The notes under the pieces: model-generated
The model's database searches: none
Seen by the model: only the letters and a program-made list of their open reading frames with translations
What the model was told of the DNA's origin: nothing
Source: Ruditapes philippinarum
Taxonomy: Eukaryota
Length of the DNA: 64,000 nucleotides
Assembly (NCBI RefSeq): GCF_026571515.1
Contig: NW_026863858.1
Coordinates: 62,001-126,000, forward strand
Reading direction: 5' to 3'
Program-made: the position numbers and the translations under genes
Shown: piece by piece, positions 8,972-49,649 of the stretch
Position numbering within the stretch: the stretch's first letter is position 1
How the letters are laid out: each line of letters begins with the position of its first letter

Positions 8972-9740
8972 AGTATTTTAGACGTCCATGCCAATTTCTT
9001 GTATTTCAGATGTCCGTACCCAAATGTCCATATCCATTATTGTATTTCAAATGTCCGTACCCATTATTGTATTTCAAATGTCCGTACCCATTATTGTATT
9101 TCAAATGTCCGTACCCATTATTGTATTTCAAATGTCCGTACCCATTATTGTTTTTCAAATGTTCGTACCCATTATTATATTTCAGATGTCCGTACCCATT
9201 TTTTTGTATTTCAAATGTCCGTACCCATTATTGTATTTCAGATGTCCGTACCCATTTTTTGTATTTCAGATGTCCGTACCCATTTTTTGTATTTCAGATG
9301 TCCGTACCCATTATTGTATTTCAGATGTCCGTACCCATTTTTTGTATTTCAGATGTCCGTACCCATTTTTTGTATTTCAGATGTCCGTACCCATTTTTTG
9401 TATTTCAGATGTCCGTACCCAAATGTCCATATCCATTATTGTATTTCAAATGTCCGTACCCATTATTGTATTTCAAATGTCCGTACCCATTATTGTATTT
9501 CAAATGTCCGTACCCATTATTGTACTTCAGATGTCCGTACCCATTTTTGTATTTCAGATGTCCGTACCCATTTTTGTATTTTAGATGTCCATACCAATTT
9601 CTTATATTTCTTGTATATCAGATGTCCGTACACATGTCTTGTATTTCAAATGTTCAAATTCCTACCCTGAATTTCAGATGTCCATACCCATTCCTTGTAT
9701 TTCAGATGTTCAAATTTCTGCCCTGTATTTTGGATGTACA
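8972..9740. repeat. 26/27-bp minisatellite (TGTATTTCARATGTCCGTACCCATTAT)n
   Basis: Many near-identical units. They generate the repetitive ORFs in all three + frames (CISNVRTHY / VFQMSVPII / LYFKCPYPL). Confidence 0.95.
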
Positions 9741-10587
9741 TATCCTTGTCTTCTATTAAAGATTATCAAATCCGTGTAAGGGGACCGACATTCTTTATTT
9801 CCTGATTGAACCTTATACACATTACATATCTACATATTTACTTTCACACATATTTAAGATAACATTTACACTCCCTTGCCTAATTCAACTTTGCATTTTT
9901 ATCGCCTGCGCCTTTCTAATTTCCATGTTGTAAAGTCTGGTAAATGACCGATACCCTGTAATGATTCTTTAAAGGATTGACAATCTGTATATGAACTACG
10001 TAAATAACCGAGGTATATCGAGTGAAAAAAACACGAGTTGTTTCCCTTATCTTCGAATTAATGCTAAAACAATGCAAATTTAGCCGTTTTTAAACCGCTA
10101 GTTTGTGGCGATTTAAAATCCGATTTTGAAATTTATTACACCAATGAAAAGCTTAAGATCTTAGCTTTGTCTCATTAATATTTAACACATTGTTTATCAC
10201 TAAAGGTATTTAAATTTTCGGTTTTGTCACTTACCACAAGTCAGACCATTTTACATTCGTTCTATACAGTAAGATACGTCGCAATTCTACTAATAAGAAA
10301 AGCCTGTCGTCTTGTCAATTGGTGTATTTAGTTTTGGCCCTAACTGCTCTTATGGTTTATCCGAATTTGGTCATTTTTTGTATCGATACTGTTATAATAC
10401 ATATACATACATGATTCTTAAAGTAACATTAGTATAAAGTAAGTAAACAGGAGAAATCTATTTCGGTATAGGAGCGCTTTCTGTTATCTCACTTTTTGGC
10501 AATGTGAATGACATATATGAGGATGGGTTAAAATGTAATGCAGTATGGCCAATAAGTTTAACAAAAGAGCAAATATAATTTCCCAAT

Positions 10588-13202: not shown

Positions 13203-13328
13203 TCATTTACATTTGTACACCTCGCTAAAGAATTCTACCAGGAAGTCCGTGACGATTCCCTTGTCCGGTATATTCGCCATCATACCGTAAACACCCGCCG
13301 TTCCTTTCTTTGCCAGGGCTTTATTATC
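13203..13328 (-). CDS. SGPL1: SGPL1-like terminal exon ([41 protein letters not shown])
   Basis: ttacag acceptor, 126 nt in phase 0; matches the SPL C-terminal A.YGM...IPD motif. Confidence 0.9.
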   Translation of the reverse strand, partial: DNKALAKKGTAGVYGMMANIPDKGIVTDFLVEFFSEVYKCK

Positions 13329-16300
13329 CTGTAAGTTTATAAACAAAAACAGGAATAACAGCAAACGGTGTGAAAAAAATGTGAAAAAACGAGGTGCAAT
13401 ACATGTATACCGAGATGTCAATAAATAATAATAGCAAGTGGTGTGAGAGAAGAATATCATAAAACTGGGTATAATACGGAAATATAAATTTCCTCAACTC
13501 AAAGCAGTCTAACAGCAATTATAAAAGGGATCGAAAAGAGTCTTAGAATAAATATGCAAAAATTACATAAATCAATATCAGCATTTCGTCCTAACTACTG
13601 CTGATTTCTATTTCTAAACAGTTTAACATAAATTAATTTGGATACATGGTGTCTGTCTGGCAATAATGCAAGTTAATATTTCTTTATAAAGACGACCCTA
13701 CCTCACACGTAAAGACTGAAACATAACTTCATTTAAAAATCCTGTGTGTTGTAATTAAGGTTGTTACCACACTTAAGTGTAATGTTATATATGCATATAA
13801 CTATGCTTCTAAAACAATTTTCAAGCATCGAAGAATATGTAAAATATGCACTGCAAATATGTGTTCACATTATATGTTATCATTAAAATATATGCATTCA
13901 TTTCTTATTGTAAACTTTGACTTTGATTTTATAGAAAATAAATCTTTAATTACCTACCTTTATTTACATAATTTTATAAGTTCGGTAATATCTTTACAAA
14001 TAATGCTTTTTGGAACTTAAAATATTGACAAATCTTCATTTGAGCATTATATTTATGATATAAAACCATAAAAGATTGAGTTACAGGATCTTTAAATACT
14101 TCAATTCTATATTTTCGAAAGTTTCAAATCAAACAATTACCTTGCAATACTTGGCCGCCTCCTCAAGGTCATCTAAAAACTTGTCAGCAACATGTTCATG
14201 ATGTGGAAGTATAGAGCAATGAAGAGAATCTGGCAGTTGATTTCGTTCCATTTTCCAACCTTTTGTTTCCATGGCATCAGCAACAGCTTGTATATTGATG
14301 TTCGGATTACTGGCAGATATGGCGAACGCTGTCATACAAGGGTCCCCCATGATTTGTAGTCCCTAATATTGCAATGATAGCATAAGTATTACTGATGTAT
14401 AAATCTGCAATGATTTGTGCAAAGGCTATTACTTGTCATCAAGATAAAAAAATGTCAACCAAACTTATAGATCCCTAAATACTCAAAATCATGTTTTATT
14501 TACATAAAATAGAATATACCATTACATTAAATTACATTTAATTCTGCAGTACCTTTGCAGATGTTTCGATTTTATGTACTTCACTAGATATTTGAAAGAT
14601 TTTCGAATTTATGTTTTAAGCCTTTGAACCTGAATGGAGTTCCTTTAAATCAGCATGCAACGTATGATAAAGTGATCTGAAGAAATAGGTGCTTGAGCTT
14701 GCAATAAACCATATCTATAATTATATTGAATTGTTTAGACGTTCAGCTATTCCGTTTCTTAAAGGCCCATTATGCCTCAGATATGATATCAGTTTTTCTC
14801 TCCAAAAGAGTGTTTATTTTTGGTATCTTGTTACATTTCCAAAAAAAATATACTCATTTTCCGTATACATGAACTTCCTTTTGCAGATTTTGTTATATTT
14901 ACATTTGATATTATTATAGTTAATTAGGATTTTAAATTAAGGTCGAAATACTTATTTGTTTTCATTTAGCTATACCTTTACGTTTAGCGCTCTCTTTCAG
15001 TATTTAAACATGTAGCATGATCTAGATTCATTATTGAAACATTATTAAACACATGTGTGCAATTTTTAAAAATATGGATATATGAGGCTGTTTAAAGGAC
15101 AGGAATGTGTCAGATGTATTTGAGCCGCGTCATGACAAAACCAACATAGTGCGTTTGCGACCAGCATGGATCCAGACCAGCCGGCGCATCCGCGCAGTCT
15201 GATCAGGATCCATGCTGTTCGCTTACAAACTCTATTACAAGTAGAGAAACTGATAGCGAACAGCATGGATCCTGATCAGACTGCGCGGATGCGCAGGCTG
15301 GTCTTGATCCATGCTGGTCGCCAAACGCACTATGTTGGTTTTGTCATGACGCGGCTCAATTATTAAATACATTGTAGTAACCTGCCCACAATATTAACTC
15401 CTGAAGAAAATCATTTATTGCCATGAAGGTCTTATATATCTATCGTCTATGTGGTCATGTGGCAAAGTTTATCGAATCCTGGCGTCTTAGCTTTCAATCA
15501 TTTTAAGATACCCCGTACAGTATTATCGATGGGGATAATAAATACTAATGCTAGTCTTAAAAACCATTTAAACAGATTGTCTGTTTTAAAAAGTTCGTAT
15601 ATTTAAACAAAATTCAGTAAAGCGTTAGTAAAGTATACTACCTGGTCTGGTACCAGCCATTGAAGGGGAACCATATAGACCTCCTGGCCACTCTGAATAG
15701 GCGTAGATCTGATATTTTCTTATATCAGAATTTCGGTAACAAATAACGCTAGCACCCTGTAAATAATTGTAGTAAAAAATATTGATTCAAAAGTGTAAAT
15801 GTTTGTCATATTGCATTGAAGATACATATATATCTTACGGTATTGAACTGTTTACTAATTAGGGGATATTATGTAAGCGACCATATACGAGGGTGGATGA
15901 AAAAAATGCATTAACTTTCGTAACATTAATTTTGTTTGTACAATAAAAAGACCCAAAATAATAATCAGTTTTTAAAAAATTTGGCCCTTTTTCCCTGTTT
16001 TCTGTTAAATTTTTGGGTATGATTAGGTCCGGGGTTTCCAAAAGAACAATCTTTTTTTTGGTCGTGCAGTTGGACGGGTGTTTGGAAAACGACGGTCAGT
16101 GGGGAAGCCCCCGGTCGGTATTTCGGGGGTTTCCCGTTTTTAAGACCCGGTCGGGACTGAAACTTTTTTTTTTCCCCACTTTTTTAAATGTAAAAATTAA
16201 AAAAAAATGTTGGGTTTAACTTTTTTAATGCATTATTTTTTCTTTTTTTTTAACTATATTGTTTTTTGTATCTTTAAATCCCCCTAAAACACTAGGCCGC

Positions 16301-19300
16301 CAATTTCACGCTGCTATTGCCCGTGGGTTTCTAGGCCGCTATTTTCACGCCGCTAGGTCGCTGGGCCGCTAGGCCGCCAACTTCACCCTGCTATGACGCT
16401 TGGTCGCTAGACCGCTAACTTCACGCCGCTAGGTCGCTGGGGCCGATAGGCCGCCACTTCACGCTGCTATGACGCTGGTTCGCTAGCCGCTAACTTCACA
16501 TCGCTATGTCGCTGGGGCTGTAGGCCGCTAACTTCACACCGCTACTAGGTCGCTTGGTCGCTATACCGCTAACTTCACGCTGTTATGAGGCCGGGTCGCT
16601 AGGCCGCTAACTCCACGCCGCTAGGCCCCCAATTTAAACATCTGATATTTTTACTATTGTTCTTAAGTATTCAATTTATTTAAACATACCTTCACACACA
16701 AAATCCATATTTGTGAACATCTGCAGACATTGAAGTCACACCTGGAACCCGGAAATCAAATTTCGGTACAGGATACCCCAGTTTCTCTACCCTAAAATTT
16801 ATGTCGTTTGTTATAGACATAACATGGCAAACAAAATCAAACCACTTATAACTTTATTTGATTCTTGATAGCAATAACAAAACAAATAAAAAAATAGATA
16901 AAAAATAAAACTTACATGTAAAATGTAAGATCTAACTCGACTTTACTAGAGTTGTTTATGGGGATAACCAAAAAGATAAGACTTTTAATTACATGTATAA
17001 ATAAACCTACTAATATTTTTACCTCTACCAAAGGTGCTATATACGTCAAAATGCCTAAAACCTANNNNNNNNNNNNNNNNNNNNNNNNNNNNNNNNNNNN
17101 NNNNNNNNNNNNNNNNNNNNNNNNNNNNNNNNNNNNNNNNNNNNNNNNNNNNNNNNNNNNNNNNNNNNNNNNNNNNNNNNNNNNNNNNNNNNNNNNNNNN
17201 NNNNNNNNNNNNNNNNNNNNNNNNNNNNNNNNNNNNNNNNNNNNNNNNNNNNNNNNNNNNNNNNNNNNNNNNNNNNNNNNNNNNNNNNNNNNNNNNNNNN
17301 NNNNNNNNNNNNNNNNNNNNNNNNNNNNNNNNNNNNNNNNNNNNNNNNNNNNNNNNNNNNNNNNNNNNNNNNNNNNNNNNNNNNNNNNNNNNNNNNNNNN
17401 NNNNNNNNAGTGAATCACTTTAAATAGAAAAAAATCCGCAAAGGATTATAAATCAAAGCACAGAAGGTGCTGAATTTGTTTGGGTCTCAGAATGTCAGAA
17501 AGATGAAGGTTATAAGATTATAAACCAATTTGTTTTTGTAAAGTGCCACCAATGCTTTCCAGCGTTTTAACTGTAGTAAATTGGCTATAAGACTAATTTA
17601 AACACTGATATTCAATCCAATGTTTATTTGACTTAAACAATTTGAAAAAAATGAGTTGCCTTCACTGGGATTTGAACTCCAGACCTCTCGCTTCCTAAGC
17701 AAGCGCGCAAACCCCTCGGCCACGGTGAAGTTATTTGTTTACAGCCTGAAGAAAACTATATTATTCTATATTAGGGCTTGTAACGACGCTAACTGTTGTT
17801 TTAACAATGATGGAGCTTACTTAAAAATGTTATCTTTTAAGAAAAAACCCAATATTAAAAATTTCGACCATTTGGGGAATTTTTTTTATTTTGTTAAAAA
17901 ATTAATGCGCCTGTCTTTACCATCTTTACGCAGTGTTTCCCCCCTAAATTTTTCGGCGTTATTTTAAAAATATAAAAGGGGAAGAAACCCGGGCTTAAAA
18001 AAACGGACTACTTTGGGCACTTCCCAATTTAAAACAGCTTGGGATTTTCTAAAATTTTTCCCCTACCTTTATTTTTTTGGTCTGCGCCCCAAAAAAAATT
18101 TAATAAATATACTAAAAAAATTTTAAAAGTCGAAAGTGATTTGCAATCTTGGGCCCGTTTTGGGTTTGGGGTTTTCCTCCCCTTGTTTTTTGGTAAAAAT
18201 TTATTTTATGTCATTTTAAATTTGTACTAAAATTTGATGGAACGTAAAAATTATTTTAAACACGATTTATGTTAGTAGATCGTCGGTTTTACATGGCCAT
18301 ATTCATTGCATATGTGTGTATGTTCTGTTTGACTATGTGTATTCAAATCTTGTCGAAAACTAAACGAAAAAAAAATTTTAATTATACTTCCTGGCAAACA
18401 TAAAAACACAAAACAACGTCCACATGTAGAGGTAGTCGTTTTTTTCAGAGCCAGTTGCCAGCAATTTCCTCTATAGGGTCCGATGACAGCGTTGGCAAAA
18501 TTTGTGGAGCCGACGCTACAAGCATCACGGTCTGCCCAATTGCATAGCCCATATGTTAAGTGTAATTTCACGATAATTTTTGATAATTTTAAATAATTTT
18601 ACTTACAGGTTGATAAAATTGTGGAGTCGACGCAACAAGCATCGCCGTGTCCGAATTGATAGCCTATATATAGTGTAATCACAGATAATTTGATTATTTG
18701 AAACTTGCACTACAATTTACAAAATTGTGTAGCCGACGCTACAAGCATCATCGTGTGCGAATTGATAGCCTATATTTAGTGTAATCACAGATAATTTGAT
18801 AATTTGAAACTTGTACTCAGTTGATAAAATTGTGGAGCCGACGCTACAAGCATCACAGTGTCCGAATTGATAGCCTTTATTTGGTGTAATCACAGATAAT
18901 TTGATTATTTGAAACTTGCACTACAGTTGACAAAATTGTGGAGCCGAAGCTACAAGCATCACAGTGTCCGAATTGATAGCCTATATTTGGTGTAATCACA
19001 ATCAATTTGATTATTTGAAACTTGTACTACAGTTGATAAAATTGTGGAGCCGACGCTACAAGCATCACAGTGTCCGAATTGATAGCCTATATTTGGTGTA
19101 ATCACAGATAATTTGATTATTTGAAACTTTCACTACAGTTGACAAAATTGTGGAGCCGAAGCTACAAGCATCACAGTGTCCGAATTGATAGCCTATATTT
19201 GGTGTAATCACAATCAATTTGATTATTTGAAACTTGTACTACAGTTGATAAAATTGTGGAGCCGACGCTACAAGCATCACAGTGTCCGAATTGATAGCCT

Positions 19301-22300
19301 ATATTTGGTGTAATCACAGATAATTTGATTATTTGAAACTTGTACTACAGTTGATAAAATTGTGGAGCCGACGCTACAAGCATCACGGTGTCCGAATTGA
19401 TAGCCTATATTAAGTGTAATCACAGATAATTTGATAATTTTAAACTTGTACTACAGTTGATAAAATTGTGGAGTCGACGCAACAAGCATCGCCGTGTCCG
19501 AATTGATAGCCTATATTTAGTGTAATCACAGATAATTTGATTTATTTGAAAACTTGTACTACAGTTGATAAAATTGTGGAGCCGACGCTACAAGCATCAC
19601 AGTGTCCGAATTGATAGCCTATATTTAGTGTAATCACAGATAATTTGATAATTTGAAACTTGTACTTCAGTTGATAAAATTGTGGAGCCGACGCTACAAG
19701 CATCACAGTGTCCGAATTGATAGCCTATATTTAGTGTAATCACAGATAATTTGATTATTTGAAACTTGTACTACAGTTGATAAAATTGTGGAGCCGACGC
19801 TACAAGCATAACGGTGTCCGAATTGATAGCCTATATTTCAGTATTTAGTATAGTCACAGATAATTTGATTATTTGAAACTTATACTACTACAGTTTTCAA
19901 ATCCGATACATATTTCATGTACCGATAACTTGAAGTAGTACTGTGCCCGAATTCACCTTGGACGTTATTGATAGCCCCTAGCGTAAGTACGGATAAGTTA
20001 GTTCTAAATTGTGCGAACTGAGAATTTTGGATATTAGATAAAAACTTTTAACGCTTGGACTAACTATATCTTCATCATGATAGATGCATGTATATACTTA
20101 ACTGCAATGAAAGTTTGAACTGAAATGGAATTTAGATAAAAAAAAAAAAAACTCCGACTGTTTACGGGGTAACGGGACTAACGGACAAAGCAGAATCAAT
20201 TTTGTCATTATCTGCGATCTTATAGTTCCAAATTTTTTTTCATAAATAAAGAAATAATTTCCTAACAAGCTGATAGAATTTTCTTAAACTTTGATTGAAA
20301 TAATAACTTAAACAAATTCATAACCAAACGGGGCTCCCAATTCTTTATTCTTTAGTTACCTGCCCCTGAAAGTAGCTTTCATTACGTAAAATTCAATTAT
20401 GCAATTTCGAAATACCAAATTAATATATGACCGGAATAAACTTAAGAAGGTCTTTGACATTGTCAGTCCGTTGGTAGAAAACACATTAGCATGTCTGTGA
20501 CTATTTTCCTTTATCGTAAACAGTTCAACGAACCTTCATATTATACAACCGATTTATAAAGTTGAACTTTACCAGTGCAAATATCTAAAGGCCCATTATG
20601 CCTTAGAATTTTATTTGAATTTTTATATCTTGAAAGCTTTTTTTTTTTTAAATTTTGGTGTACTTTATAGTATACAAAGAGTTACCCATTGGCCAATTAC
20701 CTTAACCATCTTGTTTATCTGTTTCTTTTTTGGCAATAAGTGCATTTATTGTGAACAAGTTTTTTATACGGAAGTCAAAACATTTCTCGTTTACATTTTG
20801 CTACTTTTATGACAACAATTTTCATATTTATCCCTACTTTTGCCAGGTAACAAGCATCTACCATTTTCTAAGACCATTATTTTTAACATCATATATTTCA
20901 TGTTTGGCATTTTAAAGAAGTATAAATTTATTTGTTTCTGAGGCATAATGTGTAATTAACTATTATTACAAACAAAATGTATAATAAACATACGTTGCAA
21001 TATTTTTGAAAAAAAAGGTTGCTGCATCTATGGGATTTTGTATAATTTTATCATGGATGTTTTTTTCTAATTCGGTAGGTATTTGAGAAGTTTTAGAAAG
21101 ATATAAAACCTTTTCCATAGCTTTCACATCAGCCCTGAAAGTCCGAAGCCATAGGTGTATGTATTACATCCAATCCGAAAAATGAGCCGCTTTATCTATA
21201 GTTCGGGTGTACAAGTTATTTAGGGGCTACCTTGCAAACATTCAAATTTATTATCTAATGCATTCTATTAACTGTTTAATTTGAATTGCTGAAATCGTGT
21301 GCATTGCGCAATGATGAAATTAAACTGTTATAAGAGTTACCTGAATTAGGCTCAAAAACTAACAGTGATTTTATCTCGCGCCTTTTAATCATTAAACAAG
21401 GCATAGTTTATCAAATTCGACATTCACCAAGTGTTTTTAGAAAACAAGTAAAACTATTCAGTCTCCACATTTAAACAACGTAAAATTTTCCGCTTTTTAA
21501 TTATTTTCCCTGGTCAACGGTGTTTTTTTATTTAATATAAATTTTATCGAATTTTTTTACCCCGTGTTATGAAAGGGTATATATTTTTGAAACCCAAAAG
21601 TAAACGTCTAGTTTTTTAAGTTTTTAAAAAAAATGAATATAATTTTAATCGTAAAATATTTGGTTTTTTTGATTTTTTTTTTGTCGCTAGCGCCATGTCT
21701 CGGAAGGTTTTTACCGCCATTAGGTTGCTCTCTGTCCCGCCGGAAGTTAGAAACCCGACGACTTCACTATTACCATTTAACATTGCAGCTGTCATACTAA
21801 CAACTTCTGTCTCCATTAATCTAAATAAAAAAGTTTGATCTTTAAAAGAAATGAGGAAACATGTCGCATGAAGAAACATGTCGCAGACGGGTTCTATTTT
21901 GAACTGTCGTCTGCAACTAAAAAATCCGTTCGTCAATGGAACTGTTAAGAGTTGTTGTTGTTCTGCAAGAGTAATATAAAGTTGCAATGAATTTTTGATC
22001 GTGATTATTTTCATCTGTCATTTGTTCATTTATATTCATATTTTTAACCCTGTCAATCGACCTTTAGGGAATTATACAAGCTTCTAGCAAATGTCACAAT
22101 AGATTTACTGAAAAAATAGGATTGTAAGTCACGTTGTACTGAAACAACGTGATTGGTTAGATAAGAATTTGAAAAAAAGATTGCCAAGTCTAACTTGTGG
22201 TTTGTTTCATAACCGAGAGAATGGTTCTAGTATGAAAAAATATCACATGTTTTGATTTTACGTATTATTTTCTAATATGAATAGTATAAAGATTTTGACA

Positions 22301-25105
22301 TAAAAAGATGGTTCTCGTGAAATTGAATATTTATATACATCAATGAAGAATTGTTCGCAGTGTCTTGAAAACCTCGGTTTTTAGTTTGAACTTGGTACTC
22401 CGTGTGAAATATTTGATTGTTCTTCATTCGCAGGAAATCTGGCACCTAGCTATGGTTACATTTTAAACATTGAAACGTTTGCTTTTTGAATTATATAGAA
22501 TTTTTTTCTGTTTTTTTTTTTTTTAATTTATTTTCTTTTCAGAAATAGCGACGAAAAAATAATCGTTTAAGAACAGCAAAAACTGAAATGTTGCAAGCTT
22601 TGATTAAACATGGTCATAGATTGAAGTTTTGAAAGAGAATTATAAATATATATGAATGCTAAATATTTTAATATACATACAATCAATCCTTTGTTTTGTC
22701 TGAATATACAAATGTACTTGAATGTATAATAAATGCCGATGAAGAAGACCGAAAGGCCGATAGCTACTGTAAAATTAAATCAGCGTTTTTAAATATATCA
22801 TTTTGTACAGTGAACAATAGATCTACCAATTGCTTTCACAATATTCATTTCATGTTACAAACGTTTTGCAGTGTTTCTTAGACACATAATTTGCCAGTCC
22901 TACGTGGTTAGCGAATAAGCCCTTAAAATGGGTGTTTTCTTTATTGTAAATCTTTACAGTTTTTTTGCTGAGTCTCTAAATTTTTACCTTAAAAAAGGGA
23001 ATATGATTTGGGTTTTAGGGCCCTTTCGTGCATAAATTTATGAAAAATTCCCTTTTCCCGTTCGTCTTGCTCTATGTTTGGGCCCCTTTTTTTCTGAAAT
23101 TCAGTGGTGTATTCTAAATTTTGGTAATCTACTAGACGGTTTCTAGACGCTTTAAAATTGATCGAGAGATTTGGGAAAAATGTGTTATATTGGATTCTTT
23201 TCAGTTTATAGTTTTTTAAAAACTTATATTAAAAGCTTTTTAAATTTGTATCAGTGGCCTTAATTCTTTTTTTTTCAATTTTTAATTTAAGTAAGGGGGA
23301 GGCAATCCATGAAATTTTCAGTGGGCACGTTTTTTTTTTTAAAGGGAATTTTGTTTTGCAACTTGCCCACCCCTGAAAGTTTTTACTTGAAATTCTCACT
23401 AATTATTTGAAGCTCTTCCCATTCTTTTTACGATGGACTTACCTGAAAACATATTAATTTAATGTGTTCAGTTTTTAAGAGGTATCTACACAGCTATATA
23501 CTTACCATTGAAAACTGCTAACGTGCACATAGATACAATGTACAAGATTATTCCTTGTAATGATAACAATATAACAGCTGAGAAGCTTTAAAGGCACATT
23601 ATGCCTCAGAAATGAATAAATGTTAACTATTATAGAAAGGTCAAACATTAGTTTAAATAATGGTTTTAGAGCATGTTAGATTCTTATTACCAAGAGAATA
23701 CAGACTGAATATGACATTTTTGTCATAAAGGTAGCAAAATGTAAACAAAATAGTATTTGACTTCCATGCACAATACAAATTCATTATAGCTGTACCTATT
23801 TTAAAAAAGCAACAGAAACAAAAGATTGTCCAGGTAAGGCTATTGGCCAATGAGTATCTTTTTGGAAACTACAAAAGGACACTAAAATTAAAAAGCGTTT
23901 GAGGAATAAAAATAAAAGCTTATTTATCTTAGGCATATATGGGCCTTTAAACTTACCACAAAACATATCAAATGCTTCCTGTTGAAGCCTGTAGTTATCG
24001 TCACACAACGTGTATTGGTACGCAAAGACGTTGCCGTCACGTTCGGGATTAGCGTTACGTTTCTGTAAATTTTTCATCTGTACACGCATATCCTCAGCGC
24101 TAAATCCTGTTACAAAAAAATATAAAGTTAGTTTAAAGTGGTAAATAGCCTTTCACAATAGCTTGCTAATTAAAAAGGTAAAATTAATTGGTTTTTCAGA
24201 AATTGTTCTTGGTGAGTTTACCTGATGAAAACAAACACTTATAGCTGTCTGCACCGAAATAATACAACTTTATAATGCTTGATTTAGAAATTGCTTTAAG
24301 GTTTAAAGAAGTTTGTTTGCTAATTTAATAACCAAGTAATACAGTTAGCTGTTTATATTTACGATAACTGAGTTTGATTCTGCATAATTTAATGAAATGT
24401 GAAAAAACATGAAAATTTAACCTTTGTGTTTTGCTTACATTTTCGTTTATACATATCAACAAAGATTTGATGCTTTATACGTTATATTTGCTTGTACTGC
24501 ACATAATATATGTCTTGTTAATACCCGCTGCGCCAGCGTCAATGATTCGTCCAAATCAGGGACAAAATTATGTGATAAATATAATAAAACATATATAATA
24601 GCCATTACAACTTTATATCATTCATTACCATGAATCAATATAACTATATTATTCATAACCATGATTTAATATAACAATATTATTCATATAACTATATTAT
24701 TCATAACCATGATTTAATTTAACTATATTATTCATAACCATGATTTAATATAACTATATTATTCATATCCAGGATTTAATATAACTATAACCTTACAACA
24801 GTATCTATCCAAACCAAGGGAGTGGGATGTAATAGGCCTATCTAAGATACGTGTTCTTACCTTTTTCCGGAATACGGACTTTAGCCTTGCTTTTAACAAC
24901 ATCTTGGGCTAGGCTTGTTGTATTCACGAAACTAGATACCTCATTCTTCAGGACTAGATCAATTATCGCCCTTACTCCAGGCAACTCTTTAAGAGCAAGG
25001 ACAATAACTCTGAAGAACTGTTGCGGACCTTTCTTGTAATATATGCTGATAAGAACCGCAAGGACAATTGTAAACACGGTATGCTCGATAAATTCGATCA
25101 TCGTT
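13203..25105 (-). CDS. SGPL1: Sphingosine-1-phosphate lyase (PLP-dependent group II decarboxylase fold), multi-exon
   Basis: Exons with GT-AG borders: 25105-24861 (N-terminal [24 protein letters not shown]...), 24106-23957, ~23094-22988 (noisy, resembles MHENALNP..FP.LR), 21820-~21655 ([21 protein letters not shown]), 21230-21110 (noisy, KAAHFFGL...DVKAMEK), ~18550-18390 (noisy, [10 protein letters not shown]...DPIEEIA...LPLHVD), 16791-16690 ([22 protein letters not shown] lysine), 15756-15642 ([16 protein letters not shown]), 14362-14141 and 13328-13203. One expected exon between 15642 and 14362 was not located, nor was any upstream exon. Confidence 0.9.
14141..14362 (-). CDS. SGPL1: SGPL1-like exon (GLQIMGDP...[17 protein letters not shown]...FLDDLEEA)
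   Basis: ttag acceptor and gtaatt donor, 222 nt; SPL motif GW.L..LQ.P.SIH. Confidence 0.9.
15121..15358. mobile_element. Palindromic MITE (family A), copy 1
   Basis: tgagccgcgtcatgacaaaaccaacatagtgcgtttgcgaccagcatggatc... mirrored at the other end; further copies at 34159 and 43951. Confidence 0.85.
15642..15756 (-). CDS. SGPL1: SGPL1-like exon ([38 protein letters not shown])
   Basis: tttacag acceptor and gtagta donor; conserved W.GG.Y.SP..AG.RP motif. Not in the ORF track. Confidence 0.9.
16293..16630. repeat. GC-rich degenerate tandem repeat (TAGGCCGCTAACTTCACGCCGCTA...)
   Basis: About 9-10 imperfect ~35-40 bp units in an SGPL1 intron. Confidence 0.8.
16690..16791 (-). CDS. SGPL1: SGPL1-like exon with PLP-binding lysine ([30 protein letters not shown])
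   Basis: ttttag acceptor and gtatgt donor; SAD.HKYG signature. Apparent indel in a (TG)n run at the exon end. Confidence 0.9.
17065..17408. other. Assembly gap (N run)
   Basis: Ns. Confidence 1.
17655..17728 (-). repeat. tRNA-derived SINE-like head (degenerate)
   Basis: Minus strand: cgTGGCCGAGGGG (A-box-like) ... GAGTTCAAATCCC (B-box-like); no clean cloverleaf. Confidence 0.5.
18490..19890 (-). repeat. 106-bp tandem array, ~13 copies, each comprising intron end + AG acceptor + first ~16 codons of an SGPL1 exon
   Basis: gatagccta recurs at 18658, 18765, 18870, 18975, 19081, 19187, 19293, 19399... Minus strand reads aaatatag|GCT ATC AAT TCG GAC ACT GTG ATG CTT GTA GCG TCG GCT CCA CAA TTT TAT CAA CTG TAG ([19 protein letters not shown]). 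Confidence 0.92.
21655..21820 (-). CDS. SGPL1: SGPL1-like exon ([41 protein letters not shown])
   Basis: TSGGTES signature; tttag acceptor; 3' end noisy. Confidence 0.88.
23588..23950. mobile_element. TTAA-flanked MITE, inserted a few bases inside an SGPL1 intron next to the donor
   Basis: ttaaAGGCACATTATGCCTC ... AGGCATATATGGGCCTttaa. Confidence 0.65.
23957..24106 (-). CDS. SGPL1: SGPL1-like exon ([31 protein letters not shown]...)
   Basis: taacag acceptor and gtaagt donor, 150 nt, phase 1-1. Confidence 0.8.
24637..24790. repeat. ~31-bp AT-rich tandem repeat (TAACTATATTATTCATAACCATGATTTAATA)
   Basis: About 5 imperfect copies. Confidence 0.8.
24861..25105 (-). CDS. SGPL1: SGPL1-like 5' coding exon with transmembrane anchor
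   Basis: ttttgcag acceptor, hydrophobic [14 protein letters not shown], ends RIPEKG|gtaag (cf. SPL LP..G). Confidence 0.8.
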
Positions 25106-29019: not shown

Positions 29020-32000
29020 CTATCCTACTATCACATTGCCATCATCCATTCTGAAATAAAGATATTTGAAAGTTTAACCATTACAGGCTAGATATCTTAA
29101 ATGTACTTCATTATGGACTAAACCATTAATTATTTTTAGAGTGAAGCTCAAAACATTAACTGAATAAATGACGAACTGAATGAATTCCTAACTGAATTAA
29201 TACCGAACTGACTAAATAGTGAACGGAATGAAAAGCTAACTTGATGAATAGTGAACTAAATTATTAGCTAACTGAATTAATAGCGAAATGAATTTATAGC
29301 GAACTGGATGAAAAAGCGAACTGAATAAATAGCAAACTGAATTAAATGCGAACTGAATTAATAGCATATTGAATGAAAAGCAAAATGAATGAAAAGCGAA
29401 CTGAATAAATATCGAACTGAATTTCTTGTTGGTGCAAATTGATGACATCTGTATTTGGGGCATTGATATGTAAGTTGGCGCAAATTAAGTAGTCCGAACT
29501 TCTTATACTCATTTTTTACAATTATCAATATTGTAGTTAGCGAACTATTTTTGATATTACTTTGTTAATCATTTTTTACAATTTCTTGAAAAAATAAAAT
29601 ATAACTTATGTCTATTTTCATTGTTCTCGTCATGTGCAATTAATAATGTTAATGTAGTCGTTTTACAATACATGTATTTAAATGGTTCGTTTATGTCAGT
29701 GTTTGAAAAATAAATCAATGAAAAACTAAATAGTTTTTATGTCCTCCATTTTTAGGCATTTCGCTAAAATTTCATGTATTCTACAAAACAAGCAGCTTTG
29801 AAAATAATATGAGTGTTGGTGAATGCGTTAAATGCACGTCGGTCCATTTACAAACGTGTTAACAAATGTTTTTTTTTTTCTTCAACTCCAAACGCAAGTA
29901 AGAAGCTTAAGGCACTGCAAGCTCTGCTGTGGGAAACTAAATTAACAAATAAATGCACGATAGCAAATACCTTAATATTCACATATTCGTCATATAATAA
30001 GAAATGTTAGCATGTTTTTTCGTGATCACAAATTATGATGTGGTTATGGACCCTAGACGTCACACAGCTACTCTGTCAAAATTATTGAGATTATATCTAA
30101 TTACGGAAAACTGTAATTTAAATAAAAATAATACATTAATCAAACTTACGGTTTTTCGCAGACATAATTACATTGTTGATGACAATCGTAGTCCGCCCAT
30201 TTCCAGTTCCAGTCGCCCCAGTACGTGAGACAGTCCTCGTCGAGATGTAAGGGGATACTGTTCGGTTCACCTGGTCCCCAGTCGGTGAATGTGACAGGTT
30301 CGTCTGTACCGTACCACAGAAACTGACCTTCCACCACGTCATCTGACGCGCCCATCCAGACACTGGCCCCAGACACTGTCATTATAATAATATTGTTTAA
30401 AAGAGTTGGAGACGTTGTTGTATTTCCATCAAAGTAAAAATCATTAAGTAAAATGATACTGGATGGAAATGTTGTATTTAAAAGGGAAATATTGTTTTCG
30501 ATGGAAATATAGTTTCCGAAGGAAACATTGTATTTAATTAAGGGAAATTTTGTATTAAAGGAAATATTGTTTCCGAGGGAAATATTGTATTTAAGGGAAA
30601 TATTGATTTCTAGGGAAATATTGTATTCAAGGGAAATATTGTAATGAAGGGAAATGTTGTATTCAATGGAAATGTTGTATTCCAGGGAAAATATGTTGTA
30701 TTCAAGGGGAAATATTGTATTAAGGGAAATATTGTTTTCTAGGGAAATATTGTATTCAAGGGAAATATTGTATTCGAGGGAAATATTGTATTTAAGGGAA
30801 ATATTGTTTTCGATGGACATATTGTTACCTCGAAACATAATTTATCATACTGAACATGGTCAGAACTATTTTTCTTTAATCAATATCATTTTCGACTTAA
30901 AATAAGAGTGTACGCGTTTGCCGTATTACAGAAAATGTCTTTTTTGTTATTTAAATTTCAAAAGACAAATAATTAGATATTTATATAAAACGTGACATAT
31001 ACTTGTTTAACTGCACCAGTCCTGTTCTTCTGTAATAAAAATCATTGTTTGTAATCGCGGGCTTAGTTCGATTGAGCCTATCTATGAATGGGAGAAAGAC
31101 CGGGCTTGGTTCGATTGAGCTATCTATGTATGGGAGAAGTCAAAGCAAGCTCTAACACCGACGTAATCAAAATCTGTTGCACTATTCTTTAAATATTTCG
31201 TTCCATGATACGGTAGGTAAGTTTGACACTGAATTAATTTATGAGCTTACCGCCGCCTAGTCCTTGCGAAATTAATCCTTTAACGAAAATATTTTCAGCA
31301 TTGTCCTCTACATGGACTAGATATGCTTGATGTCCGGCACATAACAACTGTAAGAAAAGAGGGTAAACTATTTCATACCTTAAGTCAAACTTGATATGCA
31401 CCTTCGAAAAATACCACATCTTTCAAACAGTAAAATGTTCTAGTCAACTTTTAACTTTGAAATTTATACATTTAAAAGATAATCGATTTGAGAGATTTTG
31501 TCAAATCTGTAGACTGTTTTTACGTATATATCAATTTAGGGAACATTGCAAGATATTTATTACGAGGCTAAATTGATAAGATTGGAAGCACATTGGTTGC
31601 ATTGTGATTGTCTTTCATAAACATGTTTGTTAATAACTAAGTATATTATATACACTACTGGAATAATTATTAATATTTTATATACAAACCCTTGATAACT
31701 CAAAGTATTTTTAAAAAGTATAGTATATACACACAGTTATATTTGTCTTTAGGATATACTCACCTGAGATTCAATCCAGTTATATTTGTCTTTAGGATAT
31801 ACACACCTGAGATTCAATTCAGTTGTATTTGTCTTTAGGATATACACACCTGAGATTCAATTCAGTTATATTTGTCTTTAGGATATACACACCTGAGATT
31901 CAATCCAGTCATATTTGTCTTTAGGATATACACACCTGAGATTCAATTCAGTTATATTTGTCTTTAGGATATACACACCTGAGATTCAATCCAGTCATAT

Positions 32001-32162
32001 TTGTCTTTAGGATATACACATCTGAGATTCGATCCTGTTATATTTGTCTTTAGGATATACACACCTGAGATTCAATCCAGTTATATTTGTCTTTAGGATT
32101 AAAGAGATAGCAGGATTCGTCGTGATGTATCCAACCTTTCGGACAGTCTGAATAAACCTGGC
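29020..32162 (-). CDS. C-type lectin, perlucin-like (single CTLD, EPN...WAD); signal-peptide exon not located
   Basis: Four phase-compatible GT-AG exons: 32162-32065 (QVYSDCPKGWIHHDESCYLFNPKDKYNWIESQ), 31347-31251 (LLCAGHQAYLVHVEDNAENIFVKGLISQGLGG), 30375-30150 (VWMGASD..EGQFLW...FTDWGPGEPN...EDC...WADYDC...YVCEK) and 29050-29020 (MDDGNVIVG*). AATAAA on the minus strand near 28960. Confidence 0.9.
29158..29422. repeat. ~17-bp degenerate tandem repeat (GCGAACTGAATAAATA-like)
   Basis: Recurrent aactgaat motif in the last lectin intron. Confidence 0.7.
30460..30835. repeat. 18-bp minisatellite (AGGGAAATATTGTATTCA)n in lectin intron
   Basis: About 20 units; produces the artefactual (YNISLE)n N-terminus of ORF 30146..30838. 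Confidence 0.92.
31734..32099 (-). repeat. 43-bp tandem array, ~8.5 copies, each comprising the last ~11 codons of a lectin exon + splice donor
   Basis: cacctgag at 31761, 31804, 31847, 31890, 31933, 31976, (32019 mutated) and 32062. Minus strand reads CCT AAA GAC AAA TAT AAC TGG ATT GAA TCT CAG|gtgtgtatat. Confidence 0.92.
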
Positions 32163-34158
32163 CTATAGTAGATAGATATTGTTGTATGCTTTTTGGTGAG
32201 ATACTAAACTATATCGATTAGATATAACTCTTATATAACCCAGTGAAATATAGAATTTTGAAACGGAATATAGATTTTCATGACGTCATGGAAATGTCAT
32301 ATAGATATGAAGAAACTGCGCATTCTTTGTCCTATTATTTGTATTACTACAGACTAGTTTTAATATATATAAAAAACAATATACTTATGGAATACGAACA
32401 AATAACGATTAAAAAATAAGTTGCCTTTGTTTAAACATATCTTACAATACGACATCAGTATTTATCAATATTTTCATTATTTTCAACATTGTTCTGCGTG
32501 CGTCTTTTTGTGAGATTTATCACATACCCGTGTCGTTTTTGAAGTCCGTCAAAATGGTGTTGCACGCCCGTGCATATAATTTGGCGTGACGTCACTTGCG
32601 TTATACAAACGCGCTAAATGATAACGTTACACTATAGGTGCGCCATTGAAAAATGATTCTTTTTCACTTTAAACAAACTTTATTTTGGGTATGTGATAAA
32701 TACAGGAACATTATATTCGTGAAGGTTCATTCCTGAAATAATTGAACTTGTTGAATAAAATAGTTTTATGTTCGCTAGAACTTTTTCAATAAATTCAGTA
32801 TTGAACTTACACTCTATATATTCCATATTCACTGAACTATATTTTATGATTATGATTTCATAAGATCACAATGTATTCAGGTAACAACGTGAAATTTAAC
32901 GGAACAATCACCATGACGTGGTTTCTAGATAACCTTGAAAGTTCTTAAATTCATTTCGCATTGGTATCAAAAGAACTTCAAAAATAATGTATTCTACACT
33001 TTATTGCTCCAATCAAGTTTCATAGAAATGTTTTAAGTATACAATATTCGTAAATCTTATAAACAATTTTACCTAAAGCTATAGCTATAAGTAAGTATAA
33101 TAAAACTCCGTTATTCGCCATTTCTGTGTACAGACAAAAACATTGGCACAGTTAGATAAGGATTGGTTCGTATTGTTTTACAGATAGATAATGACCTTAA
33201 ATTAATATTACGTTATTCTGTCCTCATTCCTCAACTGTACAAAAATAAAAAAATAAAAATAAAAAACATAGCATATTTCACTCCGACAAAATACATACAT
33301 TCAAATAAAATTAAACATCTTATAATTATCAAAGTTTACATTATTTAGTAGCAAAGTAATGATACAAATACATCTTTGGATTGTATGAATGAAAGGAAAT
33401 AAAGTAATTTTACTAACAAGATAACATTTTTTTATAATTTTATCAGAAGATTCGGTTGATTTAATTCCTTAAGTATAGTAAAGTGAAAGCATGCAAATTT
33501 ATGATCAAATTATCAGACCAATTCAAATCCAGTTAGACCGAGAGAGCACCATATAATTATTCAGATTTGATTAAACTGTATAAAATTTATACATCTGCTG
33601 CCAAAAACCAAGTGTTTAAAGTTTTAAAAAAGAACACAGTTAACATCCAAAATGCTTTAATGAAATAAATTTGGTAGTTATAAATTGCCTTAAAAAGGGA
33701 ATGAAAGTGAATGGCGCATGCACAAAATCAATCATTATAAAGGGATTAAACCCTACCTATTTGTTTCAGAACATTTTATTTCATTTGCATACAATATTCA
33801 TGTGTTTTAAATAGCAGAGACATTCTATGTTACAACTCTTCCGTTAAAACCAATTCAATTTTACACTTAATAAACTTGATTTTTATCTCTTCAAAATATT
33901 TTTCTTAATTTGGTAGAATCTAACAGGCACTCGAACGAAAGTGACGTCATCTATAACGTCATAACGTCAATAACCTGCTTGTACATGGGATAAAATCTAC
34001 TTTGAGTTAATTTATATAATCAACTTTTCAGTATAATATATTTCAGTTGATTAAAAAACCATCTAATATGGATACTCAAACATTACGAAATTGCCAGTAT
34101 TTTTATTCATATGATAAAATCTACGTTATATTTATTTAAATCTAATAAGAAACGTAAT

Positions 34159-37585: not shown

Positions 37586-38674
37586 AAAGATTGAGCTTAA
37601 ATAAATACTGTTCAGTTAAAATGGTTCAAATTGGTTTCTTAAAAAGTTTATTATAACACTTCGTTATGTATATCATTGTAAACGATATCCCAATGCTGTC
37701 ACATCGGACACATAAAATAATTTTATAATTTGTCAAACGTCAAATTCTTTCAATATCACCTAGAACTTTCCCAGCATCATAAGTACAATTCCGTTTGTCT
37801 TCAAATATTTAATGGGCCGACTACGACGCCGAAGATTGATGTTTCTTTATTTTTAAGACTTACAAAAAGACCCCTGTAATAGACCCTTGGTATAGTCAGA
37901 AACTGTTTTAACTATTTCTTAAATCATATATGAAATAACTGCTTTTTGTTTGAGTCCAAGACAATTACTCACTCACCTGAGTGACTTGTTATCTCGGAAA
38001 ATTTTCCTATAATAATTTGTGTTGTTTAATTCCCTTCCGTTATTTTCTCTCCCCTGAAAATTTCCCCTTCCCCACCCACCCCTCGTTATTTTCACTCAAC
38101 AAAAGATTCCCCTTTCGTTTTTTTCTTGCATATCAGACTGGTGTTTCCATTTGTTTTTCCCATGCTGGAAATTTCATCTGACTAGGTGAGGGGGGTGCCA
38201 GATGAGTCGCGTGCTATACGAAAACATGCTTAGGATGACGTAATTTTGCCGTTATGAATGAAGTTATAATTTCATACTCCGTTGTAAGAAAATAGTTTCG
38301 GGTGTAATGACATAAATTTCCATGAAAAATTGTTTTATATAGGTAAAGAATTGAAGATAGTATGGTAGAATATGCAAGACAAAATATATGACATATGCTC
38401 ACGGTTCGGAACATCCGCCCCTCGGGAACCCGCCCATGGACGGTAACTCGGAAAGCCTCGTTTCCGCCACCGCAAAATATGAAAATTATTATTAATCTAA
38501 CTTCGGACAATAAACTTTCCGTTCTTTTCTCACTTCAGTTTTAAAAAAAAATCGATCAGGATTAAAGGTCGGGGTATTGTCTAGGACGTTTGTTATGTCC
38601 CATCTTATCCATGTACACTCAATACGATATATCTGTGTATTTCAGGTGTAAATGTATAACCAAAATACAACAAT

Positions 38675-39919
38675 ATGACGACTAATTCATCAAACGTATC
38701 CCTTCTCGAGGACAAACTCTTGCAGGATGCCCATCAAAGAATTGTTAGAGAGCACATCCCGTTAATTGTGTTCTTGTTTATAATGTCCGTGCTAGGCATC
38801 ATCGGCAATATTCTGACAATCATTTTCTACGGGTACAGGGTAAAAATGACGTCTACAATTACTTTAATTCGGCTGCTGGCTATAGAAGATCTTATCGTAT
38901 GTTTTCTATTGTTTACAACGATTGCTGATCTCTTCGTTAACATACTCTTTACGGACAGTATCGTCTGTAAAGTGATGTACTTCTTCGACCACTGGTTCGT
39001 TGTTTCGTCCGTGTTTACTTTATGGATCATCTCTATTGATAGATATAGACGGATGTGTCAGCCACTTAAATCACAATTAACTGTGAAAACTGCAACAATA
39101 TCGGTCATTGTGACATCTATATTCTCAATGATATTTTCCTCTCACGATTTTATCACATACACTGCTGTAGAAGTTAATATTTCTACTTTCGACGCATCAC
39201 ATCCGTATGTAACTGGCCATTACTGTACAAATACAGACAGCCCTGATCTGCAGACGGTCGTCATCATCTTCCACGTCTTAGACGCGCTGACCATCTTCGC
39301 GTGTTTGTTAACATTTGTCTTTACGTATGGTAATATTTGGCGGGCACTTCGAGCACACAACAGAAATACAATACATTTGCACACGTCACCCATCCTTCTC
39401 CTCGCGACATAGCACATCTGATTTCAACAGTAAAGTATTAAAAACAGCGTTGACGATACTGAAAAAGACAAGAAGGAACCTGAGACTTTGCTTAACAAAC
39501 AATCTGTTCATTTTAGTCTGAGCAGCAATTTGAATAATTCGCAACCATCCATTGGTGATATAATCAATGAGACAAAACCTATGGCAACAGATAAACATAA
39601 GCAAAGACGATCTTCTTCTAAATCTTCAAAGACGAGTAGATCAGAACGGAGTCTCACTATTATGATGTTTGCAGTCACAATCGGTTTTGTCGTCTGCTTC
39701 ACCCCATACTTTATAGTTAATGTCGCTATAAGAGTATCCTCTGAAACAACCGAGGACGAACTTCGAACAATAATTGAGTTTGCCTTGAGGTCTCCATTCT
39801 GGAACAGTGTCATAAACCCTATTATATTCTGTGTATTCAATACCCAAAATACAGACCGTTATGTGAAAAAATGTCTTTTTTCTAAATGCCCAAGGAAACA
39901 ACCCAAAACAAACCCTTAA
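38675..39919 (+). CDS. Class A (rhodopsin-like) orphan GPCR, paralog 1; reading frame interrupted in ICL3
   Basis: GIIGN (TM1), LAIEDL (TM2), C..M.F.DHW...SIDRY (TM3), CFTPY (TM6), NSVINPIIF (TM7). ORFs 38675..39412 and 39488..39919 are in the same frame, with three stops at 39410-39433 that are removed by a compensating -1/+1 indel pair in homopolymers. tttcag acceptor just upstream of the ATG. Confidence 0.88.
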
Positions 39920-44156: not shown

Positions 44157-44915
44157 TATAAACTATTTACAGTTTGTCGGTATGTTCTATATTCTAACAA
44201 CGCACTGATGCAATGCTAGCCAACATCCAACGATCAGAAATAGATAGCCAAAACCTTCCAAAAGAAATATTAAAAAAAACTAATCCAACGTCATTTTGAT
44301 GTTACTTTATATTCTTTGCGGTCAGTTATTGTTGACTATATCAACTCGAGAGAAGAATAAGTACTGAAACAGTTATATCATGCAAAATCAGACTAAGAAA
44401 GTGCGATCTGCAAATATAAATACCACGACATTTTCGTAACCTCTATGACCGTTCAGCACGGCATTTTTCTGATCCACTTTCAAAAGGGCACATTCTTTTA
44501 CTTGGGGACCACATGCTACTTTTCATGGAATGGCATGAATGTGTCTCATTGAAGGTTCCATGATCCCCGCCGTATGAACACATCTGCAGATGTTTCTAAA
44601 TTCAAAATTTTATCATTACATGTTTGAATGGTGAATACTGCCGGTGCTAGGGGCGTGGACGATAGCTTGCTATATCCAGTACCTAATGAAAGAGAGTTAT
44701 GCGTATTCGTTTACAAATAATGCCAACTAAAATCCAGCTTGTTACATTTCCAACAACAAGCATGCTCGGTCCAACTCATAAGTTCAAATTTTAACTTCAC
44801 GTTGATAAGAGCCAGTTATCATCATCAGCATCATTGTGACCGACAGTTATGTGTTACCCTTTTTAATTTAATACTGTACGATGAATTTCTATCTTCTAGA
44901 TTGACATGATGAAAG

Positions 44916-46232
44916 ATGACGCAAAATAGTAGCTATACCAACTTGACGTTATCGTCAAAGTGGGACGAACTTTTACAAGAAGCACATCGAAAGAAAGTAT
45001 TAGAATATATGCCACTGATAGTTGTACTGTTTGTGCTAGTAGTTGTCGGACTGATCGGGAACATTCTGACAATATTATTCTATGGATTTAAAATAAAGAA
45101 AACGCCTACGTTTGTACTGATATTGCTTCTGGCAATAGTTGACCTCATTGTCTGCTGTCTGGCATTCACAACTATCGCAGATCTGTGTGTTAATATTATG
45201 TTTACAAGTGAAATTCTTTGTAAATGTATGTATTTCTTGGATCACTGGTTGATGTTGTCATCCGTTCTAATTCTCTGGATAATATCCATTCATAGGTATA
45301 GAAGGATCTGCAAACCATTGGGAAGACAATTGGATGAGAGATCAGCAAAGATTGTTGTTGTCATGACAACTACGTTGTCAATGGTATATTGTATACATGT
45401 TTTCATCATTTACAAACCTGTGAAGTTAAACATATCAACTTCAGATGATTCTGTTCCAATAGTAGTTGGACATTATTGCACGAATACCGATGACCCGGAC
45501 ATTAGAGATGTTCTCATTACCTTTCATATCATTGACATAGTCTCTATATTGTTCTGCTTCGCGACATTTGTGTTTACTTATGGAAACATATGGCGCACGG
45601 TTAGACGACACACTAGAACAGCGACAACACTCAAGCAGGCTGTTCCATCAAGTTCAACTGTAAAACGTACAATACCTATTCAAAACAACTTGGAGCAGAC
45701 AAGTACTGTCAGCTCTAAAGACAATATATCAACGGAGACAACAACAACCCAGATGCAAATGAGTAATATCACAACTCTAGGAGTTTCGTTAAGACAGGGA
45801 AACGATCTTGGTCAGTCGGTGGGAGATTCTGAAAACGAATCTACAACATCAGTACCTAAAGATAACCAAAATAAGTTCAAATCTCAAAATGCTCAGAAGG
45901 ATCTGTCTTCATCTAAAGCTTCAGAAGATCAAAAAGTGCATGCCGCTTCAAAGTCTTCAACAACGTTAACACGTGAACGTAATATAACGTTGATGATGTT
46001 CGCCGTCACAGTTGGACTCGTTGTTTGTTTCACACCGTACTTTATTGGTACTGTAGGAACAAGAGCGTTGTCATCAACAAACGAATCAGAACTTAACATT
46101 GGAAATGAGTTGGCACTTCGATTTCCCTTTTTTAACAGTATTATAAACCCAATAATTTTCTGTGTGTTTAATCCGCAATATAGGAGGTACGTGCTAGGTA
46201 AACTAGCGGCTTGTCTTCTAAGGAGGAAGTAA
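44916..46232 (+). CDS. Class A (rhodopsin-like) orphan GPCR, paralog 2, intact 438 aa
   Basis: Seven hydrophobic segments; GLIGN, LAIVDL, SIHRY, CFTPY, NSIINPIIF; N-terminal sequons NSS and NLT; long S/T-rich ICL3; ttctag acceptor upstream of the ATG. Confidence 0.95.
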   Translation: MTQNSSYTNLTLSSKWDELLQEAHRKKVLEYMPLIVVLFVLVVVGLIGNILTILFYGFKIKKTPTFVLILLLAIVDLIVCCLAFTTIADLCVNIMFTSEILCKCMYFLDHWLMLSSVLILWIISIHRYRRICKPLGRQLDERSAKIVVVMTTTLSMVYCIHVFIIYKPVKLNISTSDDSVPIVVGHYCTNTDDPDIRDVLITFHIIDIVSILFCFATFVFTYGNIWRTVRRHTRTATTLKQAVPSSSTVKRTIPIQNNLEQTSTVSSKDNISTETTTTQMQMSNITTLGVSLRQGNDLGQSVGDSENESTTSVPKDNQNKFKSQNAQKDLSSSKASEDQKVHAASKSSTTLTRERNITLMMFAVTVGLVVCFTPYFIGTVGTRALSSTNESELNIGNELALRFPFFNSIINPIIFCVFNPQYRRYVLGKLAACLLRRK

Positions 46233-48388: not shown

Positions 48389-49649
48389 ATGTTCACTATC
48401 AGTGGGGTTCTTATTACATGGCTATCTATGTTAAGGTAGGTGTTCTGATTGTCTTTTTGTAATTGTTGTTATTGTTTCATTTCTAGAGTATTTCTTTATT
48501 CTGTTTNNNNNNNNNNNNNNNNNNNNNNNNNNNNNNNNNNNNNNNNNNNNNNNNNNNNNNNNNNNNNNNNNNNNNNNNNNNNNNNNNNNNNNNNNNNNNN
48601 NNNNNNNNNNNNNNNNNNNNNNNNNNNNNNNNNNNNNNNNNNNNNNNNNNNNNNNNNNNNNNNNNNNNNNNNNNNNNNNNNNNNNNNNNNNNNNNNNNNN
48701 NAAGTAATAAAATACATAACATAAAAAAGTAGATATTATTAAATCTCCATCTTTTGTAGAAGTTCCAATTATTCTAATGTCCCATGCCAAATTGCTCTGT
48801 CAGAAAATGCCGATGAAAAGCCGTGAGATCTAACAAACAAAGCAAATGAATGAAATAATCACTTGATGTTCAGAACATGTCATATGGTCTTAAGGTCAAT
48901 AAAAGTGAATGTCATAATAGTTAAATGACATAATTAAAAAAGTTGCAGATTTTGTGTGAACAAGAGTGCCTGTGAATGGCATTGACATATATTAAATACT
49001 TTCTTTAGCTGAACACTGCGCAATATTAGCAAAACACCACGCTATACCAGTTACATTCTTAGCAGAACACTACCATTTTTGCAGCAGACTAGTCATAAAA
49101 CGAAAAGGGTGTTTAATGGCAGTAGAACTTACTGCATATCAACTTTTATAGAACGACTTAAGGATAAACTGATAATTTAAATATTTATTTATTTTCTTTT
49201 ATTTCAGTTTCACAGATGGCAAACCAGTCTCGACATTCACCGATGGTAACGTTACATTAGAAGAGGTAATTGGACGTAATTTTACAAACATGGCAGAAGG
49301 GATCATCTTTACTGAGAACGCCCACGACAATAAATCGGAAGAGTCAATTGTCTTCTTTGCTGCGGGCACAGACGCTTGTGACGAGACTACGGATCAAGAA
49401 GGTGCAGGAAAAGTAAATATCGCCATAGGCGTTCTACTGTTCTCTGCTGATAACATAGTGGATGAAAATCCAAGCGTAGATTACAGCTTTGAAGAAGAAG
49501 ATACAAAGAAACAAAACATAATGATAGAAAAGCTGTTCAGCAACAAAGAAACAAAGCAACGACAACATAAACACAAGAAACATCATCACAATGGCAGAAA
49601 ATTCGCACACTGGCCATCTGATTTTAAAAAAAAAACTGCAGAGCTCTAA
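48389..49649 (+). CDS. Uncharacterised secreted acidic/His-rich precursor, copy 1 (exons 48389-48435, 49208-49649)
   Basis: aaaATG MFTISGVLITWLSML AG|gtaggt ... tttcag|T FTDGKPVSTF...; phase 2 joins in frame. C-terminus extended (WPSDFKKKTAEL*) by a one-T difference. Confidence 0.8.
48507..48700. other. Assembly gap (N run) in intron of copy 1
   Basis: Ns. Confidence 1.

Follow-up and report, generated by a model that had tools for sequence, protein, structure and literature searches.

The 64,000-nucleotide stretch of the Ruditapes philippinarum genome analyzed here (the window; positions 62,001 to 126,000 of contig NW_026863858.1) contains a 106-bp minisatellite built from the boundary between intron 5 and exon 6 of an SPL-family gene. 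The array is a mirage minisatellite, a class already described in amphioxus, and this one is in a bivalve. The most probable reading, to which we give a probability of about 0.8, is that it is a length-variable, near-neutral passenger of the gene and that splicing skips to the last copy.

The array was delimited with Tandem Repeats Finder (TRF), which returned a period of 106, 12.9 copies, 91% matches and a score of 2197 (Table 1). The exon part of each unit encodes, on the minus strand, the 16-residue peptide at the start of exon 6, equivalent to residues 260–275 of bivalve SPL-family proteins and immediately following exon 5. Thirteen acceptor-like starts are present on this strand, 12 decoys and the last copy at 18548, and AG was found at −2/−1 in all 12 decoys, in agreement with an earlier note on this DNA that had described the unit as intron end, AG and exon start. 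Successive decoys are spaced by 106 bp in nine of 11 intervals. The same note had placed the end of the preceding exon at 21110 in phase 0, which is borne out by the GT that follows it in both contigs carrying the array (see below), and had expected some 12 upstream acceptors typically to run into a stop. Read in phase 0, nine of the 12 decoys reach a stop after 19 codons and the rest after 24, 29 and 60. Every one of these stops lies upstream of exon 7, so that decoy use would truncate the protein ahead of the SADVHK lysine, as had been claimed; this residue we take to be the pyridoxal phosphate (PLP) lysine of the family. Extension into the exon proper, homologue residues ~276–310, is confined, again as proposed, to the last copy (18548 in the window; 32641 in the second contig, C7843), and the authenticity of this terminal unit rests on homology. 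A 17-mer from the unit start is absent from the rest of the window. Five of seven characteristics of mirages were thus found, namely a boundary-spanning unit, an authentic terminal unit, a retained AG, length polymorphism and a locus-specific unit.

Comparison of the array end with the genome matched two contigs among the best-scoring candidates, the window's own and C7843. Because C7843 is collinear with window positions 2718–36024, it is likely to be the other haplotype, a segmental duplicate being the alternative. Its array (32610–33426) holds 7.8 units with eight starts, against 12.9 units with 13 starts in the window. AG is present at all eight starts, the last included, and all seven decoys reach a stop in 17–22 codons. 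One variant is found in six of the seven C7843 decoys and in none of the 12 window decoys, while units 7 and 9 of the window are identical; both observations fit turnover within each allele. Concerted evolution was not apparent from mean unit identity (92.7% within the window, 87.1% within C7843, 88.0% between them), and array-specific grouping was visible only through the diagnostic site and a weak grouping in the tree. That the copies or their number arose from mis-joined long reads is the least probable explanation of those weighed. The contig is noisy on both flanks of the array, and the exact copy numbers may be off. However, two separate contigs hold the array, each with its own variants, the inner units keep the regular spacing given above, and in RNA run X21 a few reads (depth 1–4) cover a unit to either side of the part copied from the exon. 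The array is considered real.

The host gene was reconstructed by tblastn with the bivalve homologue P0003 and with P0004, which identified 11 coding exons on C7843 and 10 in the window. A protein search with exon 4 gave 23 SPL-family matches, the best 93% identical, the named ones being mostly from bivalves (Mya, Mactra, Dreissena). A domain scan placed homologue P0003 in PF00282, and the SADxHK motif was read from the C7843 exon. P0003 matches solved sphingosine-1-phosphate (S1P) lyases (human SGPL1 chains 4q6r and 8ayf; bacterial 5eud and 3mad) at E ~1e-101 and shares with them the HVDAC and SADxHK motifs. Its scores against the bacterial and human lyases are nearly equal (345.2 vs 344.6 bits). 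A second SPL gene is present on three contigs (C15268:700-5566, C15008:720-5934 and C13927:556532-560169). Compared with human SGPL1 over the one exon that overlaps, it reaches 69 bits and the window gene 33.5 bits; the two genes differ in intron positions. Judged from this exon, the window gene is an SPL-family paralogue and a candidate lyase, not the SGPL1 orthologue. The earlier assignment to SGPL1 thus holds for the family (PF00282) but not for orthology, and an argument from S1P-lyase dosage is weakened because a gene closer to SGPL1 lies elsewhere.

Exons 1, 2, 10 and 11 are 95–99% alike between the contigs and free of gaps, as expected for a live gene. The true exon 6 carries indels in both contigs (77% alike), at different places, and indel-rich patches with 72–80% identity and 16–25 gap openings per 500 bp extend over introns too. 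Since the exon 6 indels differ between the contigs and the noisy patches include introns, the indels are likely to reflect an unpolished long-read consensus. The same would account for the true acceptor, which the earlier note had read as 'atatgg' and doubted: the window does have GG there, but C7843 reads AG, and consensus noise is the likely cause. We infer that the reading frame of exon 6 is intact.

An alternative interpretation of these data is a decaying gene copy, with exon 6 frameshifted or deprived of its acceptor, exon 9 lost from one allele and arrays that grew under relaxed selection. Neither contig has exon 6 in frame, the window has GG at the acceptor and lacks exon 9, and expression was near zero in four RNA runs; furthermore, no own-species protein of the window gene was found among 23 + 4 search matches or five members of the P0003 cluster. 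Such decay is nevertheless improbable in our view, given that the indels differ between contigs in patches that also cover introns, that 10 of the 11 coding exons can be read without a break in C7843, and that other bivalves have full-length relatives of 537 amino acids, several of them encoded on contigs the size of transcripts. The window lacks exon 9, found only on C7843, together with most of a second array that has a 62-bp unit. The gap could be a deletion allele, and possibly a null allele, or an assembly drop; the two are indistinguishable because the gap lies close to where a noisy patch ends.

Expression was explored by mapping the raw reads of four RNA runs (X21–X24) on 19727–21286, which comprises the first copy and exon 5. 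Exon 5 was covered at a depth of 0–1.6 and no joint from donor 21110 was present in any of the four runs, the coverage being too sparse to show acceptor choice. The unit-spanning reads came from X21, the other three runs having none. Between 490 and 1480 reads per run were placed, nearly all on a repeat-like stretch of intron at 20559–20974, where they were <95% alike with loose ends; this stretch is likely to consist of pieces of a dispersed repeat. In addition, 20 RNA runs contain 4–12% of the array's words, which was not counted as evidence.

Arrays of this kind are known from amphioxus. PMC3902484 names Adh, troponin C and PGBD5, and PMC3087553 includes the globins BflGb6 and BflGb9, with haplotypes differing in copy number (6 vs 3); RT-PCR (reverse transcription followed by PCR) suggests that splicing is not disturbed. 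The clam array resembles the amphioxus mirages in consisting of tandem intron/exon boundary copies, with AG or GT kept in many units and several arrays per genome, in differing in copy number between haplotypes and in having variants common to one array; amphioxus mirages occur on either the acceptor or the donor side. It differs in its host, a bivalve rather than a cephalochordate, and in its dimensions, with a 106-bp unit in 13 + 8 copies as against 150–160 bp and 6 + 3 copies in BflGb6. Moreover, normal splicing is reported for the amphioxus mirages, whereas in the clam it is predicted. No report of a mirage in molluscs was found in the literature searched, most subscription journals being outside its coverage. 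The Adh3 mirage is said to show somatic length instability. A further parallel is the 37-bp variable-number tandem repeat (VNTR) in intron 7 of human F7, whose identical pseudo-donors are functional but silent according to PMC1557585. There, as in the clam, the terminal unit spans the exon boundary; in F7 splicing uses the copy next to the exon, as is predicted for the clam. However, F7 is donor-side and its true site is met first, while the clam array is acceptor-side and its true site is met last. The direct analogue of the F7 VNTR is a 43-bp array at a lectin gene in the window.

This lectin array is one of two further boundary arrays at the locus. It has 40.1 copies in C7843 (47619–49345) against 8.5 in the window. 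The predicted lectin exon beside it (32065–32150) has a weak Pfam match (E 0.035) and the exon downstream matches Lectin_C at 9e-8; the gene continues on the minus strand at ~31250–31350 and 30149–30400. The other is the 62-bp array, the unit of which copies the acceptor and the start of exon 9 (residues ~383–422) of the same SPL-family gene, as read on C7843. Examination of the window's 27-, 18- and 16-bp arrays found no tie to exon boundaries. A 27–28-bp minisatellite at window 9024–9771 (~0.75 kb) has an acceptor-like TTTCAG in each unit, and its host exon was not found; in C7843 (10979–16597) it has ~200 copies over 5.6 kb.

The frequency of boundary arrays was estimated from 337 exon hits at 114 loci (164 P450, 119 kinase, 39 PF00282 and 15 ALDH). 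A boundary array was defined as a tandem array of period at least 15, at least 2.5 copies and score at least 80, ending between 8 nt and one period + 12 nt inside the hit, and the control consisted of intronic windows matched in length and placed at random. Six of the 337 hits carried such an array, or 1.8% (95% interval 0.7–3.8%), where the control predicts 11.75 (P(X<=6)=0.053). Of the six, L091 and L092 seem to be alternative haplotypes of a single gene, and the rate is 1.5% if five are counted. With 25 nt of slack the figures were 8/337 observed and 14.1 expected, and under earlier rules 7/218 against 5.1% in the control (loose) and 4/218 against 4.1 expected (strict). In all six positives, read by eye, the unit spans a GT or AG boundary. 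The inspected stretch of L148 shows copies in which GT is no longer preceded by G, unlike the real donor. Reading nine candidates of the first set by eye led to the rejection of L155 and L140, and L164 1558-1668, L167 2338-2446 and L168 1807-2094 were judged ambiguous and not counted. In these last three, 27–28-bp arrays begin at the donor of PF00282 genes with no clear exon part, and they are possibly decayed donor-side mirages. The matches of the PF00106 and PF00501 searches, and those at the 30 top-ranking loci of PF00067 and PF00069, were for the most part long and confined to a single exon; L042-L089, L105-L118 and L179-L208 were therefore kept out of the exon tally, and those that were P450 or kinase loci were used as hidden Markov model (HMM) seeds. 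Boundary arrays are common, then, but not enriched at exon edges, and perhaps slightly depleted there. They are also not specific to one gene, being found at exon 9, the lectin exon and P450, ALDH and kinase loci.

Table 1. Coordinates of the array, its host gene and other boundary arrays (window positions unless a locus or contig is named).
Feature	Position	Strand	Remarks
106-bp minisatellite, acceptor-side mirage	18498..19888	-	12.9 units; ~56-58 nt intron end incl. AG + ~48-50 nt exon 6 start
12 decoy acceptors, first exon bases	19830, 19724, 19618, 19510, 19404, 19298, 19192, 19086, 18980, 18874, 18769, 18663	-	
First coding exon of SPL-family gene	24859..25101	-	
Exon 2	23952..24107	-	
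Exon 3	22990..23100	-	Noisy in window (76% to C7843), clean in C7843
Exon 4	21655..21822	-	TSGGTES motif; 3' end noisy in window
Exon 5	21110..21230	-	Phase-0 donor, GT at 21109-21108, identical in both contigs
True exon 6	18388..18548	-	~Residues 260-310; starts in last unit; indel-rich, ends approximate; acceptor GG here, AG in C7843
Exon 7	16692..16790	-	SADVHK motif; downstream of all decoy stops
Exon 8	15640..15758	-	
Exon 10	14141..14362	-	
Last coding exon and stop	13203..13329	-	
Second acceptor-side mirage, remnant	15370..15425	-	62-bp unit; full array in C7843:27549-28208 (L021 7549-8208), 10.4 copies
Donor-side mirage, 43 bp x 8.5	31734..32099	-	Copies end + GT of predicted C-type lectin exon 32065-32150
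Six positives of the genome sample (P450, ALDH, kinase loci)	L148 310-1114; L135 4175-4311; L091 1314-1551; L092 1711-1992; L240 8948-9238; L235 494-650		

An exon is recognized as a unit across its length (exon definition). This principle, discussed in PMC1557585, could explain how the last copy is selected. A ~106-bp stretch across the acceptor would have been duplicated once by chance, and the duplicate then expanded and homogenized by slippage or unequal exchange. Because the local acceptor sequence is near-identical in all copies, the choice must rest on downstream sequence. The last copy alone is followed by the remainder of the exon and, ~150 nt downstream, by a donor; recognition across the exon would choose it, each upstream copy defining an exon ~106 nt longer per step. 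Rare decoy use would bring in an early stop codon and probably removal by nonsense-mediated decay (NMD), at little cost.

The passenger reading is favoured by the match to the amphioxus mirages, the silent pseudo-donors of F7, the signs of turnover, the spread of such arrays over unrelated exons at no more than the background rate, the missense changes in the decoys and the close likeness of exons 1, 2, 10 and 11 between the contigs. Several observations weigh against a passenger that is always skipped. The gene is nearly silent in all four RNA runs, which gave no junction read, so that use of the last copy is a prediction. Decoys would be expected to be used under a first-come or scanning rule, and local acceptor sequence cannot explain the choice. 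AG is retained in 19 of 19 decoys over both contigs, and the last 30 intron bases of the decoys diverge by only ~5% from their own consensus. Synonymous variants are slightly over-represented in the decoy exon parts, with seven synonymous and nine missense among 16 distinct variants where synonymous sites make up 25% (P=0.08); there is no clear signal of coding use in this pattern, which may reflect recent copying from the real exon. The indels of the true exon in both contigs make a broken gene possible. Finally, the survey was based on HMM hit edges in four families, with paralogous exons and some haplotype duplicates, and it excluded the genes of the window and single-exon loci.

A rival reading was put forward in the earlier note: the array could be a copy-number-tuned splicing sink, in which decoys capture part of the exon 5 donors, the stop-containing transcripts enter NMD and longer alleles yield less enzyme. 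All 19 decoys stop before the PLP-lysine exon, copy number varies (13 vs 8), the decoys are encountered first during transcription, and 9537 human tandem repeats are reported in PMC10078293 to be associated with splicing variation. Set against this, the mirages described in PMC3087553 and PMC3902484 yield no aberrant mRNA, boundary arrays recur at no more than the background rate, in-frame stops are expected from AT-rich intron sequence, and a canonical SGPL1-like gene is present elsewhere in the genome. No decoy junction read was present in the four RNA runs, at a depth giving no power. The sink is therefore unsupported, though not refuted, and we consider it very unlikely; the proposition that decoy use rises with copy number, so that array length sets gene output, also seems unlikely. 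The suggestion in the same note that the locus could test exon definition is fair.

Other features of the window lie outside these genes. Three near-identical exon-like frames of ~150 codons on the plus strand (49176–49646, 55131–55580 and 61200–61649) form a ~6-kb tandem duplication, two of them being followed by decayed pieces resembling long interspersed elements; one copy was scanned and gave no clear match (best Pfam E 0.095). Two single-exon frames on the plus strand, at 38660–39916 and 44913–46229, resemble G-protein-coupled receptors by eye, the first being split at ~39410–39434.

Read as a passenger, the array extends to a bivalve a class of repeat whose published cases come mainly from amphioxus, and the survey provides a rough first rate for a clam genome, ~1–2% of the sampled exons and not above background. 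In practical terms, gene models and read mapping fail at exons that carry boundary arrays. Acceptor-side arrays with allelic differences in copy number can set exon definition against first-come choice in a natural experiment. Were copy number to tune splicing after all, splicing and expression would vary across the genome through rapidly mutating mirage VNTRs, sometimes with exon loss, as exon 9 is missing beside the second array in the window's contig, and in so polymorphic an animal these arrays would amount to a hidden set of expression variants.

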